Shown here: positions 15,154 through 19,144 of the stretch, piece after piece
How positions within the stretch are numbered: position 1 is the stretch's first letter
How the letters are laid out: the number at the start of each line of letters is the position of its first letter
Virus record (IMG/VR): IMGVR_UViG_2579778622_000006
Span: 1-20,803 of that record
DNA length: 20,803 bases
Direction: 5' to 3' (one strand)
Source: a virus
Taxonomy: Duplodnaviria; Heunggongvirae; Uroviricota; Caudoviricetes
Notes under the pieces: model-generated
The model's database searches: none
Told to the model about the DNA's origin: nothing
Seen by the model: only the letters and a program-made list of their open reading frames with translations
Program-made: the position numbers and the translations under genes

Positions 15154-15828
15154 TTAGGCTTTGATTTTGTATCTTCTTGGTTTTCCTGAGAAAATTACTG
15201 TACCAATTATAGAGCAATTACCGTTGATCTTAATGTAAGGCTCAGGCCAGTTTGGGTTTAATGCTTTGAGATAACGCTGTGTTCCATCTTCTATCAATCG
15301 CTTGAAGGTGGTTTCGCCTGTATCGTGCATCAACGCAATAACGTCGTCACCGTGGCAAGCAGGGACTTCAGGATCAACAAAAATCATGTCTCCCGGGCGG
15401 TACTCATCAATCATTGAATCACCAATCACCCGCAAGATATAAGTCATTTCGCCACAGGGTACAGGGCAGGGATACGTTTCCGCTGTGCTCAAATCAACCT
15501 CAGAATAACCAACTTCTTTCCATGCTCCGGCCTGTACCCATGATATGACAGGAACTAACGTAATTTGTTTGTTAGTGATTGAAACATCAGGTTTTTTTGT
15601 GATGTTTGTTGTCTGGTGTTCTTGATCAAGCCATCCGACAGGCAGGTCGAAGCATTTTTCGATGTGCCGTGCCATGCTGTCACCGATATTTTTAGTGGCG
15701 CCATCCCCCATAAACCTGCTGGTTTGGGTTGGCTCGCGATCAATCATGGTGGCAAAGGAAGAATTCCCGCCAACACCATCTCTCAGTTTTCTGGCGTTAG
15801 ACCGCCGGATGTCATGGACTGTTTTCAT
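15154..15828 (-). CDS. cI: CI-like prophage repressor with S24 (LexA-type) autopeptidase domain
   Basis: 224 aa. C-terminal S24 signature with catalytic Ser in VIGDSM and Lys in TFKRL; N-terminal HTH-type region; divergent from the cro-like gene across palindromic operators; no strong SD. Confidence 0.85.
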   Translation of the reverse strand: MKTVHDIRRSNARKLRDGVGGNSSFATMIDREPTQTSRFMGDGATKNIGDSMARHIEKCFDLPVGWLDQEHQTTNITKKPDVSITNKQITLVPVISWVQAGAWKEVGYSEVDLSTAETYPCPVPCGEMTYILRVIGDSMIDEYRPGDMIFVDPEVPACHGDDVIALMHDTGETTFKRLIEDGTQRYLKALNPNWPEPYIKINGNCSIIGTVIFSGKPRRYKIKA

Positions 15829-15844
15829 AACGAAATTAAAACCT

Positions 15845-15915
15845 TTGTACCGTTAAGGTACAAGTATCTTGAAGGTTCATTTCAATCATGTAATATGTAT
15901 ACCGGGGGTACATAT
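15845..15915. promoter_or_regulatory. right operator region (O_R) with two palindromes between cI and cro-like starts
   Basis: TTGTACC-gttaa-GGTACAA (15845-15863) and ATATGTATACC-ggg-GGTACATAT (15893-15915). Confidence 0.5.
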
Positions 15916-15918
15916 TGT

Positions 15919-16119
15919 ATGAAAGCGTATTGGAACTCTTTAACCAAAGAACAGCAGGGCGATTTGGCCGGAAAAGTTGGTTCAACACCTGGCTACTTAC
16001 GGCTGGTTTTCAATGGCTATAAAAAAGCCAGCTTTGTACTGGCTAAAAAACTTGAGCAATGCACATCAGGAGCAATTACGAAATCTGACTTAAGACCGGA
16101 TATCTATCCGAAAGATTAG
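15919..16119 (+). CDS. Cro-like HTH regulator (Cro/YdaS-like)
   Basis: 66 aa from the ATG at 15919, immediately after the O_R dyad; HTH-like segment LAGKVGSTPGYLRLVFNGYKKAS; divergent from the repressor. Confidence 0.6.
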   Translation: MKAYWNSLTKEQQGDLAGKVGSTPGYLRLVFNGYKKASFVLAKKLEQCTSGAITKSDLRPDIYPKD

Positions 16120-16150
16120 CAGAAGACCTTCAATTTTTAACCACAGAACG

Positions 16151-16714
16151 ATGAGGCTAACCGTGGGTAAGCATCACTGGAAAGTAAAAAAACAGCCTGA
16201 GTGGTATGTGAAAGCGGTCAGAAAAACTATCGCGGCGTTGCCGGGTGGTTATGCTGAGGCTGCTGACTGGCTGGATGTAACAGAGAACGCATTATTTAAC
16301 CGCCTTCGTGCAGATGGCGATCAGATTTTCCCGCTGGGATGGGCAATGATTTTGCAACGTGCTGGTGGCACTCACTTCATTGCTGACGCTGTGGCGCAGT
16401 CTGCAAATGGCGTCTTTGTGTCTCTTCCTGATATCGAGGATGTGGACAACGCCGATATTAACCAGCGCTTGCTGGAAGTCATTGAACAGATTGGCAGTTA
16501 TTCCAAACAGATTCGTTCGGCAATCGAAGACGGTGTGGTGGAACCGCATGAGAAGACAGCAATTAACGACGAGCTGTACCTGTCAATTTCGAAGCTGCAG
16601 GAGCATGCAGCACTGGTCTACAAAATTTTTTGCGTTTCAGAAAGTAATGACGCCCGCGAGTGTGCAGCTCCGGGCGCCGTGGCGTGTCGTGACTGTGGAG
16701 AAACTAACGCATGA
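16151..16714 (+). CDS. hypothetical early protein (position of a CII-like regulator)
   Basis: 187-aa ORF. The ATG at 16151 lacks an SD; the GTG at 16163 has a GAGG RBS. Stop overlaps the next ORF start (ATGA). Confidence 0.5.
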
Positions 16715-17049
16715 ACAGTTTAACAACACACTACCGTCGCTCGCAACTGATTGCGCTTCCTGTACCGGGTGGAAAAGCGAAGGTGGAATATTGCTATGCA
16801 GTGAATGTACCAGGTGACAGGGAAATTGTAACCCACAGCTTTGCAGAGTGGGCTGTGGGTGATTTCAACCGGCAGAAGGAGACAGTCCTTTGCGACAAGT
16901 TAACCGCTGGTTCAAAGATCACTACGGAGTGCCCGTCAGAGTCATTCGTTGGGAGCCGGAAACACAACGGGTTATCTACCTCCGCGAAGGTTATGAGCAT
17001 GAATGCTTCAGTCCGCTCGAACAGTTTCGTCGTAAATTCAGGGAAATAG
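16711..17049 (+). CDS. hypothetical protein; 3' half doubtful (possible frameshift or overlapping small gene)
   Basis: ORF start coupled to the upstream stop; the first 57 aa are protein-like, the rest is Ser-rich, while an alternative frame (16890-17069) is protein-like. Confidence 0.3.
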
Positions 17050-17058
17050 AGGTCGGTC

Positions 17059-18000
17059 ATGAGCACTAAATTAACCGGCTATGTATGGGATGGTTGCGCT
17101 GCATCAGGCATGAAGTTATCCAGCGTGGCAATTATGGCCCGCCTGGCTGATTTCAGTAATGACGAAGGTGTGTGCTGGCCATCAATTGAAACCATTGCCC
17201 GCCAGATTGGCGCGGGGATGAGTACCGTCAGAACGGCTATCGCACGGCTGGAAGCAGAAGGCTGGTTAACGCGTAAGGCGCGTCGCCAGGGTAACCGCAA
17301 TGCGTCGAATGTTTATCAGCTTAACGTTGCGAAGCTTCAGGCAGCGGCATTTTCTCAACTGTCAGATTCTGACCCGTCAAAATCTGACGCATCAAAATCT
17401 GACCCGTCAAAATTTGATGCGTCGAAATCTGGCAAAAAAGCGGGTTTTCACCCGTCAGAATCTGGCGGGGATCCGTCAGTAAAATCAAAACATGATCCGT
17501 CAGATAAAAATACTTCTCGTCCGGACGCTTCGCAACCGGACACGCAGACGGCTGAACAGGAGTTTTTAACTCGCCATCCTGATGCGGTTGTATTCAGCCC
17601 TAAAAAGCGCCAGTGGGGAACGCAGGATGATTTGACCTGCGCACAGTGGCTCTGGAAAAAAATCATCGCCCTGTACGAGCAGGCCGCCGAATGTGACGGC
17701 GAGGTGGTTCGTCCCAAAGAACCGAACTGGACAGCCTGGGCAAACGAAATTCGCCTGATGTGTGTGCAGGATGGTCGTACTCACAAACAAATCTGCGAGA
17801 TGTACAGCCGCGTCAGCCGCGATCCGTTCTGGTGCCGTAACGTGCTCAGCCCGTCGAAGTTGCGGGAAAAATGGGATGAGCTTTCCCTGCGCTTATCACC
17901 GTCCGTCAGCACGTACACCGAAAAACGCGAAGACCCGTACTTCAAATCCAGTTACGACAACGTGGACTACAGCCAGATCCCGGCAGGATTCAGGGGGTGA
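17059..18000 (+). CDS. replication initiation protein (lambda O-like; N-terminal HTH origin-binding domain)
   Basis: 313 aa. N-terminal HTH-like domain (VAIMARLADFSNDEGVCWPSIETIARQIGAGMSTVRTAIARLEAEGWL), a repeat-encoded linker and a C-terminal domain; iterons inside the gene. Confidence 0.7.
   Translation: MSTKLTGYVWDGCAASGMKLSSVAIMARLADFSNDEGVCWPSIETIARQIGAGMSTVRTAIARLEAEGWLTRKARRQGNRNASNVYQLNVAKLQAAAFSQLSDSDPSKSDASKSDPSKFDASKSGKKAGFHPSESGGDPSVKSKHDPSDKNTSRPDASQPDTQTAEQEFLTRHPDAVVFSPKKRQWGTQDDLTCAQWLWKKIIALYEQAAECDGEVVRPKEPNWTAWANEIRLMCVQDGRTHKQICEMYSRVSRDPFWCRNVLSPSKLREKWDELSLRLSPSVSTYTEKREDPYFKSSYDNVDYSQIPAGFRG
17361..17465 (+). repeat. iteron array inside the O-like gene (putative prophage ori)
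   Basis: Four tandem 15-bp units TCTGAC(C/G)C(G/A)TCAAAA at 17368-17427, plus degenerate copies to about 17465, followed by an A-rich stretch; encodes SDPSK/SDASK pentapeptide repeats. Confidence 0.5.
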
Positions 18001-18002
18001 TC

Positions 18003-18491
18003 ATGAGTCTTTTGAATGAAGTTCAGAAATTCATTGAAGCCCATCCGGGGTGTACTTCCGGAGACATTGCGGATGCTTTTGCAGGTTACTCACGGCAGCG
18101 CGTTCTGCAGTCAGCAAGCAAGTTACGTCAGAGTGGGCGTGTAGCTCACCGTTGTGAAGGAGATACACGCAGACATTTCCCACGCCTGACTGAGAGAGCG
18201 CAGAAGCCGGAACCACAACCAGTTCGTGAAACCAGACCTGTGCGCAATTTCTATGTCGGCACTAACGATCCCCGGGTGATTTTGTGCCTGACCCGCCAGG
18301 CGGAAGAACTGGAGTCCAGGGGCTTATACCGTCGTGCTGCAACGGTGTGGATGGCGGCATTCCGTGAAAGCCACTCCCAGCCAGAACGAAACAATTTTCT
18401 GGCGCGTCGTGAGCGGTGCTTACGGAAAAGCAGCAAGCGCGCTGCATCGGGTGAAGAGTGGTATCTGTCAGGGAATTACGTGGGGGCTTAA
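18003..18491 (+). CDS. winged-helix plus PerC-like domain protein
   Basis: ATG at 18003 with AGGGGG RBS. N-terminal wHTH-like region; C-terminal AEELESRGLYRRAATVW, the same motif as the satellite PerC-like gene at 3461-3781. Confidence 0.5.
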   Translation: MSLLNEVQKFIEAHPGCTSGDIADAFAGYSRQRVLQSASKLRQSGRVAHRCEGDTRRHFPRLTERAQKPEPQPVRETRPVRNFYVGTNDPRVILCLTRQAEELESRGLYRRAATVWMAAFRESHSQPERNNFLARRERCLRKSSKRAASGEEWYLSGNYVGA

Positions 18492-19144
18492 TGAGTAATA
18501 AATATTGCCAGGCGCTGGTGGAGCTGCGGAACAAACCAGCCCATGAACTGAAGGAAGTGGGCGATCAGTGGCGCACGCCGGATAACATTTTCTGGGGAAT
18601 TAACACCCTGTTTGGCCCGTTTGTTCTGGATCTGTTCACTGATGGTGATAACGCCAAATGTGCCGCTTATTACACTGCGGAAGACAACGCGCTGGCGCAT
18701 GACTGGTCTGAACGTCTTGCGGAGCTTAAAGGTGCTGCCTTTGGTAATCCCCCATACAGCCGCGCCAGTCAGCATGAGGGGCAATACATCACCGGCATGC
18801 GTTACATCATGAAGCATGCCAGTGCCATGCGTGATAAAGGCGGGCGCTATGTTTTCCTGATCAAAGCTGCCACCAGCGAAGTGTGGTGGCCGGAAGATGC
18901 AGATCATATTGCTTTTATTCGCGGGCGTATTGGTTTTGAACTGCCTGTCTGGTTTATCCCGAAAGACGAGAAGCAGGTGCCGACAGGAGCGTTCTTCGCT
19001 GGTGCTATTGCTGTTTTCGACAAGACCTGGAAGGGACCGGCAATCAGCTACATCGGGCGCGATGAACTTGAGGCATGTGGTGAGGCCTTTCTGGCGCAGG
19101 TTCGCCAGCAGGCAGAAAAACTTGTCAGGGAGATGGCGGCATGA
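18491..19144 (+). CDS. phage N6-adenine DNA methyltransferase (Dam-type)
   Basis: 217 aa from the ATG at 18491 (overlaps the upstream TAA); catalytic NPPY motif (GNPPYS). Confidence 0.8.
   Translation: MSNKYCQALVELRNKPAHELKEVGDQWRTPDNIFWGINTLFGPFVLDLFTDGDNAKCAAYYTAEDNALAHDWSERLAELKGAAFGNPPYSRASQHEGQYITGMRYIMKHASAMRDKGGRYVFLIKAATSEVWWPEDADHIAFIRGRIGFELPVWFIPKDEKQVPTGAFFAGAIAVFDKTWKGPAISYIGRDELEACGEAFLAQVRQQAEKLVREMAA

Follow-up and report, generated by a model that had tools for sequence, protein, structure and literature searches.

The stretch of DNA analysed here, the window, comprises positions 1 to 20,803 (20,803 nucleotides, nt) of the IMG/VR virus record IMGVR_UViG_2579778622_000006 (Caudoviricetes) and includes the part of an e14/SfII/SfIV-like lambdoid prophage that governs immunity and replication. 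Immediately upstream of a gene for an O-like replication initiator, two open reading frames (ORFs), one of them ymfM and the other encoding a DUF4222 protein, share 160 nt in different frames. The initial annotation had offered four explanations for this arrangement: a programmed frameshift, a sequencing error, a pseudogene or two overlapping genes. The features concerned are the following, with supporting evidence in brackets (PGAP, NCBI Prokaryotic Genome Annotation Pipeline).

16151-16714, plus strand: ymfL, encoding a CII/CP76-type regulator (Pfam PF06892, 50 bits; PGAP; ORF list)
16711-17049, plus strand: ymfM ORF, 112 amino acids (K-12 e14 match; phrog_1170)
16711-16889, plus strand: conserved N-terminal domain of YmfM, residues 1 to about 59 (polymorphisms; short homologues)
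16860-16862, plus strand: TGA that closes the DUF4222 frame 9 codons ahead of its TTG start
16890-17069, plus strand: DUF4222 gene, 59 amino acids, TTG start (Pfam PF13973; PGAP WP_001250269.1)
16890-17046, plus strand: tail of YmfM, residues 61-112, Ser/Thr-rich and predicted to be disordered
17047-17049, plus strand: TAG that ends ymfM, in frame with the O-like ATG 9 nt further on
17059-18000, plus strand: O-like HTH_36 replication initiator gene (Pfam; annotations; geometry)

On its sequence, the ATG-initiated ORF is ymfM of the Escherichia coli K-12 prophage e14, also known as SfiC and annotated as 'cell division inhibitor YmfM'. Position 17012 is the only one of the 359 nt between 16711 and 17069 to differ from K-12 (NC_000913.3), and the 112-residue product differs from K-12 YmfM at one residue. 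The PHROGs family phrog_1170 matches all 112 residues of YmfM, and phrog_20047, a family of 63 residues, matches the N-terminal part only. The initial annotation had described this ORF as protein-like to about residue 57 and Ser-rich thereafter, which is indeed the case, with three Ser among the first 57 residues and 11 among the following 55. The 59-residue ORF, with the peptide quoted for it, is likewise present. It matches the Pfam DUF4222 model at 67.3 bits (E = 8.6e-19, cut-off 27) over model positions 3-52 of 53, as well as three further PHROGs families, and it has both the length and the place typical of Pfam DUF4222 proteins, directly upstream of a replication initiator gene and overlapping its start. 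Neither protein has an NCBIfam model and searches of PDB sequences with both returned nothing significant.

The two genes are closely interlocked. The ymfL stop codon TGA (16712-16714) overlaps the ymfM ATG in the sequence ATGA. The DUF4222 Shine-Dalgarno sequence AAGGAG (16876-16881) lies 8 nt before the TTG, inside ymfM codons Q55-K56-E57, whilst the DUF4222 stop codon TAA (17067-17069) lies beyond the O-like start, as previously noted, giving an 11-nt overlap with the O-like gene from its ATG at 17059. That ATG falls within the last DUF4222 codons and is in the ymfM frame. One correction is needed: the TTG frame had been called +1, but the distance between the two starts (16890 - 16711 = 179 = 3x59 + 2) places it in the +2 (that is, -1) frame relative to ymfM. 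Seen from DUF4222, the ymfM frame is +1.

Polymorphisms reveal which frame is under selection in each segment. Among 47 E. coli-type haplotypes, the segment from 16711 to 16889 carries 15 synonymous and four non-synonymous polymorphisms in the ymfM frame. From 16890 to 17049, 13 of the 19 variants, including all of the common ones, are synonymous in DUF4222 and non-synonymous in ymfM, and the reverse pattern is seen in only four, all rare. Purifying selection thus moves from the ymfM frame to the DUF4222 frame at about 16890, a point at which the polymorphism frame change, a drop in homologue conservation and a fall in AlphaFold confidence agree. For the DUF4222 protein AlphaFold predicts a compact five-stranded SH3/Tudor-like barrel with a predicted local distance difference test score (pLDDT) of 83. 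The YmfM model scores 52 overall, with residues 68-112 at 30-40 and lacking secondary structure, and was judged too poor for a fold search.

Site rates pooled over three divergent groups (types A, B and C, named for their N-termini; 166 sequences retained) give a similar picture. The neutral reference, ymfM-synonymous sites in the N-terminal part, shows 0.68 variants per site. In the overlap, sites that are synonymous in DUF4222 and non-synonymous in ymfM (SN) show 0.72, sites non-synonymous in both frames (NN) 0.21, and sites non-synonymous in DUF4222 and synonymous in ymfM (NS) 0.19 variants per site. Together, the sites non-synonymous in DUF4222 amount to about 0.20 variants per site. The non-synonymous to synonymous rate ratio for DUF4222 is therefore about 0.28, so the DUF4222 protein is constrained. 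For the ymfM tail the NN/NS ratio is 1.1 and the SN rate matches the neutral one, and because the NN/NS ratio is close to one the tail residues can be considered unconstrained. Within the overlap, then, purifying selection is found on the residues of DUF4222 and not on those of the ymfM tail. Additional synonymous constraint in DUF4222 arising from the overlap was sought and not found. In four unique sequences, natural variants on viral contigs (L060, L123, L241 and L326), DUF4222 carries a nonsense codon, at codons 7, 33, 35 and 35 respectively, with the ymfM frame intact; no sequence was seen with the reverse configuration, a nonsense codon in the ymfM frame beside an intact DUF4222.

If a programmed -1 frameshift operated here, it would join the YmfM N-terminal domain to DUF4222 in a fusion of ~118 amino acids. 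The -1 relation of the frames, the protein-like character of both halves and a handful of database proteins in which the ymfM N-terminus runs into DUF4222 (P0031, P0053, P0060, P0065 and P0090) would fit such an event. However, a DUF4222 start codon is present at the homologous position in all 149 unique contexts (ATG in 123, TTG in 20 and GTG in six), preceded in 142 of them by a Shine-Dalgarno-like motif, and the X_XXY_YYZ slippery heptamer is absent from the window and from 148 of the 149. Moreover, in 53 of these contexts the DUF4222 frame is closed by a stop codon just one codon ahead of its start. Homologues of DUF4222, of 43-86 amino acids, stand alone among the best 120 of 139 clusters, bar one sporadic 102-residue fusion, and in two contigs (L348 and L350) another gene lies between ymfM and DUF4222. 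Since their junctions vary and they form small clusters (1-14 sequences) from assemblies, we read the fusion proteins as sporadic indels; aside from these, the two halves, which the initial annotation had proposed to look for as a fused gene, are not fused elsewhere. Frameshifting is accordingly an extremely improbable explanation.

Two side observations concern the same region. The TGA at 16860 is not conserved: the T is replaced by G or C in nine of the 47 haplotypes, a change that is silent in ymfM, and in haplotypes without the TGA the DUF4222 frame is open further upstream. RNA folding of 16835-16935 gives a weak 6-bp hairpin that pairs the Shine-Dalgarno sequence with the start region and is no better than shuffled sequence (z = -0.78); at the O-like junction z = +1.37.

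A sequencing error or a decaying pseudogene, in which a single ancestral gene had been broken by an indel, is the least probable of all the explanations considered. The only point in its favour is the visual impression that the frame changes in mid-ORF, against which stand the conservation of the sequence, identical or nearly so in K-12 and in 1932 of 5426 complete E. coli genomes (matches to the 551-base query 16600-17150 at a coverage of at least 80%), the recurrence of the layout in distant lineages, and purifying selection on both segments. Nor was a conserved single-frame homologue found. Own start signals, the missing heptamer and conservation across genomes together lead us to exclude frameshift, sequencing error and pseudogene alike. 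What survives of the earlier proposals is that of two overlapping genes, the second with a TTG start, which is supported by the Pfam match, the switch in selection and the gene's own start signals.

Existing annotations recognise one gene or the other. PGAP annotates DUF4222 instead of ymfM in the 30 best-matching E. coli genomes, and in the one genome inspected in detail the 175 nt upstream of DUF4222 (16715-16889) are left empty. The K-12 record and many phage records list ymfM and not DUF4222, though DUF4222 is intact in K-12, and none of the K-12, phage and PGAP annotations compared lists both. Taken at face value, these annotations would mean that only one of the ORFs is real, DUF4222 being spurious according to the K-12 annotation and ymfM according to PGAP. 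This is very improbable: DUF4222 has a Pfam match, stand-alone homologues, purifying selection and a confidently predicted fold, and ymfM has an N-terminal domain under purifying selection, a wide family of short and long members and a start coupled to ymfL. The papers retrieved for DUF4222 contain no mention of ymfM.

The behaviour of the ymfM frame across the DUF4222 gene is more unusual. We retrieved 217 unique sequences using ymfM or DUF4222 queries, with all three N-terminal types included, and in 214 of these the ymfM frame stays open over 50 or more codons of DUF4222; Morganella, an indel fusion and a contig cut short at its end account for the other three. The expected number of stops was obtained by resampling synonymous codons with the DUF4222 protein held fixed. 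Across 12 ymfM-linked lineages no +1-frame stop is seen where ~27 are expected (~2.2 each), the probability of an open frame in any one lineage being 0.015-0.10; three lineages in which the +1 frame extends into an Ash-family domain likewise have none. By comparison, ten control DUF4222 genes that ymfM does not overlap contain 23 +1-frame stops, again with ~27 expected, and because of this the null model can be considered well calibrated. The DUF4222 genes of the window and its ymfM-linked relatives are thus read through by the upstream gene, in contrast to stand-alone ones, which carry ordinary numbers of stops. Lineages can be treated as nearly independent since synonymous sites between them are near saturation; DUF4222 identity drops to about 40%.

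Codon choice and polymorphism tell the same story. Where a Val or Leu codon precedes A or G, it is GTY or CTY in 746 of 746 cases, compared with 32% of Val codons that are GTG or GTA at safe positions. Variants that would create a stop in the tail number zero against ~5.2 expected from pooled polymorphism rates (Poisson probability near 0.006). Retrieval seeded with DUF4222 and the polymorphism count are both independent of the state of the ymfM ORF, although the latter count is small. The tail frame is stop-free well beyond chance, though its residues are without detectable constraint. Homologues showing a single uninterrupted frame with a conserved C-terminus, which the initial annotation had named as a refutation of its proposals, are seen in part only: the frame is nearly always open, but no constraint specific to its C-terminal residues can be detected.

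Absence of stops is one half of the pattern; the position of the terminal stop is the other. Exactly 9 nt separate the ymfM stop from the ATG of the next gene, which shares its frame, in 172 of 178 unique sequences, and this spacing holds across at least three unrelated downstream replication genes. The stop codon is TAA in other lineages (148 of the 178). The DUF4222 stop, by contrast, varies in position from 50 to 4 nt past the start of the replication gene. In the window the ymfM TAG overlaps a GAGG (17049-17052) located 6 nt before the ATG, a possible Shine-Dalgarno sequence for the O-like gene. As a side observation, ymfM and the O-like gene are in-frame at 17047-17061 and are split by the TAG and three codons only, so that amber-suppressor hosts could make a YmfM-O fusion. 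ORF lengths of ymfM homologues are mostly bimodal, with short forms of 58-68 amino acids ending near the DUF4222 start and long forms of 108-120 amino acids.

These features bear on whether the long tail is simply neutral run-on, the real products being an N-terminal domain of ~60 amino acids and DUF4222, with the +1 frame of the latter left open, unselected, through ancestry or codon habits. A tail lacking amino-acid constraint and predicted to be disordered is what would be expected on this explanation, the short homologues are complete proteins, the N-terminal domain persists in two loci from which the DUF4222 core has been deleted (L010 and L011), and the control YeP2 is open by chance. 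Neutral run-on is nonetheless decidedly unlikely, as it does not account for the missing stops in the 12 lineages relative to the controls, the uniform NTY codons for Val and Leu before A or G, the missing nonsense polymorphisms, or the combination of mostly bimodal lengths with a stop held 9 nt ahead of the following ATG.

Taken together, these results make it likely, on sequence evidence, that ymfM and DUF4222 are two genes, each with its own initiation, on a single transcript of the early-right operon. Translation of ymfM would begin at an ATG coupled to the ymfL stop, with the first 57-60 residues forming a small conserved domain. From there ribosomes would traverse all of DUF4222 in its +1 frame, adding a disordered Ser/Thr-rich tail of ~52 residues, and would terminate at the TAG 9 nt before the ATG of the replication initiator. 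The DUF4222 protein would be made from an internal TTG start served by AAGGAG, with its stop overlapping the O-like start, and no shift of reading frame would be involved at any point. DUF4222, which is also found alone, would be the older gene, overprinted by a newer reading frame.

As to what keeps the frame open, we infer that selection acts on the passage of ribosomes or on a sequence-independent tail and not on the tail residues. One possible view is that the ymfM tail is a translated spacer overprinted on DUF4222, acting as a long-range coupling device or as a sequence-independent tail on a toxic protein; across enterobacterial lambdoid phages selection would then preserve nothing but the passage of ribosomes as far as the fixed stop. 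Of the specific mechanisms, we favour translational coupling first, albeit tentatively: the stream of ribosomes running from ymfL into ymfM would be delivered to the Shine-Dalgarno sequence and ATG of the replication gene. We place a sequence-independent tail second and neutral run-on third.

The second of these mechanisms competes with coupling and not with the two-gene architecture. Here the tail would work through bulk properties such as length, disorder and Ser/Thr richness, for example as a degron or spacer on a toxic inhibitor. A frame that is kept open whilst its sequence drifts, together with predicted disorder, would suit such a role, as would SfV-type phages, in which this +1 segment bridges a ymfM-like N-terminus and an Ash-family domain in a single ORF. 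On the other hand, the composition of the tail is largely set by the DUF4222 codons, short-form homologues have no tail at all, and the strict 9-nt spacing between stop and ATG is not accounted for. On balance we consider a bulk-property tail somewhat unlikely.

Several observations weigh against the interpretation as a whole. The lineage test is partly outcome-defined, in that a lineage gaining a stop would be counted as 'short ymfM'. One control, YeP2 from Yersinia, has no +1-frame stop in its first 50 codons, the part that was scored. A tail with no function would equally be free of constraint on its amino acids. Long-tail coupling cannot be obligatory, given that short-form phages do without the tail, and DUF4222 is dispensable in at least some prophages, as the four natural nonsense variants demonstrate. 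Finally, a literature search found no ribosome profiling or proteomics covering the prophage.

The two-frame arrangement is not confined to E. coli, being also found in Raoultella, in Phytobacter and in assembly and viral contigs whose DUF4222 proteins match those of Klebsiella, Enterobacter and Citrobacter. The N-terminal types are related to differing degrees according to hhalign, with homology probabilities of 96.6% for A and B, 70% for B and C, and 54% for A and C. In Morganella, Serratia, Yersinia and the contigs L348-L350, ymfM and DUF4222 are unlinked or abut with short overlaps. In L349 and the Morganella loci the two genes are adjacent or share no more than 4-17 nt; a KilA-N/ANT antirepressor gene separates a short-form ymfM from DUF4222 in L348 and L350 (roughly 1190-2090); and a Serratia phage has DUF4222 after a KilA-N gene and no ymfM. 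The content of the interval from the cII-like gene to the replication genes thus appears to vary, and DUF4222 lies directly before a replication or Ash-family gene in every locus with a visible downstream gene.

Other variants of the locus were also seen. In L010 (Atlantibacter) and L011 (Entomohabitans), at about 2501-2740, DUF4222 is mostly deleted with its last residues left, and the ymfM N-terminal domain is kept as a 75- or 78-residue ORF directly upstream of the replication gene. In phage SfV (L337, 755-1591) the 278-residue orf37, annotated as 'transcriptional regulator', has a ymfM-like start, passes in the +1 frame through an intact DUF4222 gene that the record leaves unannotated, and carries on with no stop into an Ash-family domain (PF10554, from residue 117). 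A similar ymfM-Ash layout is present in an Stx2a phage (L346) and in Hafnia phage yong2 (L338), and the Stx, cdtI and mEp460 records name the ORF resembling SfV orf37 antirepressor, Rha or peptidase. Truncated-looking YmfM proteins in the databases could be traced to partial sequences at contig ends, to insertions or rearrangements, to in-frame deletions or to reads running into an adapter, with no simple nonsense mutation amongst them; the terminal LSLIHI of P0044 is the Nextera adapter in translation.

The remaining genes of the region are listed below.

15154-15828, minus strand: LexA-family cI-like repressor (ORF list; PGAP; Pfam)
plus strand, no window coordinates assigned: cro/ymfT-like gene (PGAP annotates a 201-nt ymfT in a matching genome)
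17997-18491, plus strand: PerC-like gene
18458-19144, plus strand: Dam methylase ORF (PGAP start at about 18491)

K-12 e14 has the same neighbours as the window (cI-like repressor, ymfT, ymfL, ymfM and O-like gene), but its O-like gene is a chimeric remnant where that of the window is complete. For ymfL the longest ORF starts at the ATG at 16151, and PGAP places the start 12 nt later, at 16163, in a genome that is 99.8% identical. A promoter and terminator scan of 15700-17300 found no plus-strand site between 16151 and 17059, and an Rfam search of the whole window gave no match. Within the O-like gene, 4.3 tandem copies of the 15-nt unit TCTGACCCGTCAAAA at 17368-17431 encode DPSKSDASKS repeats and are reminiscent of the origin-forming iteron arrays found within lambda O-type genes. 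The minus strand of the window contains an antisense ORF of 90 amino acids at 16794-17066 that shows no sign of being a gene; in the record of phage vB_EcoS-733R5 (L343), a minus-strand hypothetical protein (865-1152) replaces both plus-strand genes.

It is instructive to set the arrangement beside known systems. Same-strand overprinted gene pairs in phages include Rz/Rz1 of lambda and A/B and D/E of phiX174, and the window resembles these in that one stretch of DNA is read in two frames of the same strand from an internal second start. The classic pairs differ in that both products are constrained, whereas the ymfM tail keeps only its openness and the position of its stop. Programmed -1 frameshift pairs are exemplified by lambda G/GT, dnaX tau/gamma and the IS3-family transposases. 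The -1 relation is shared with these, but the window has no slippery site, its downstream gene has a start codon and Shine-Dalgarno sequence of its own, and there is no conserved fusion. With regard to function, prophages encode other small inhibitors of division, namely Kil of lambda, KilR of Rac and DicB of Qin. YmfM is likewise small, encoded in an early operon and reported to block the Z-ring, though no sequence relation between YmfM and Kil, KilR or DicB was seen.

The existence of a second gene inside ymfM has consequences for the published phenotype. The ymfM gene has been identified as SfiC, an SOS-associated inhibitor of cell division (Ansari et al., bioRxiv 10.1101/2020.11.19.390815): the cloned K-12 ORF is reported to block Z-ring formation and cause filamentation, independently of SulA, SlmA and MinC. 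Filamentation was assigned to ymfM by expression of the cloned ORF from pBAD24 and by gene deletion, and the shotgun clones carried ymfL 142-185, all of ymfM and ymfN 1-92. According to PMC11410268, ymfM has been used to make filamentous E. coli. In the shotgun clone DUF4222 is complete and has its own Shine-Dalgarno sequence, and pBAD-ymfM probably carries DUF4222 codons 1-53, lacking the last six, if the insert ends at the ymfM stop. All of these clones carry DUF4222 with its native Shine-Dalgarno sequence, and none of them separates the two frames. Filamentation ascribed to SfiC could be partly or wholly due to DUF4222. This matters because ymfM is the published answer to the 35-year-old question of what SfiC is. 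Beyond this one phenotype, the locus presents a second frame that has been kept open over ~52 codons without constraint on its residues, a pattern outside the scope of standard overlapping-gene tests.

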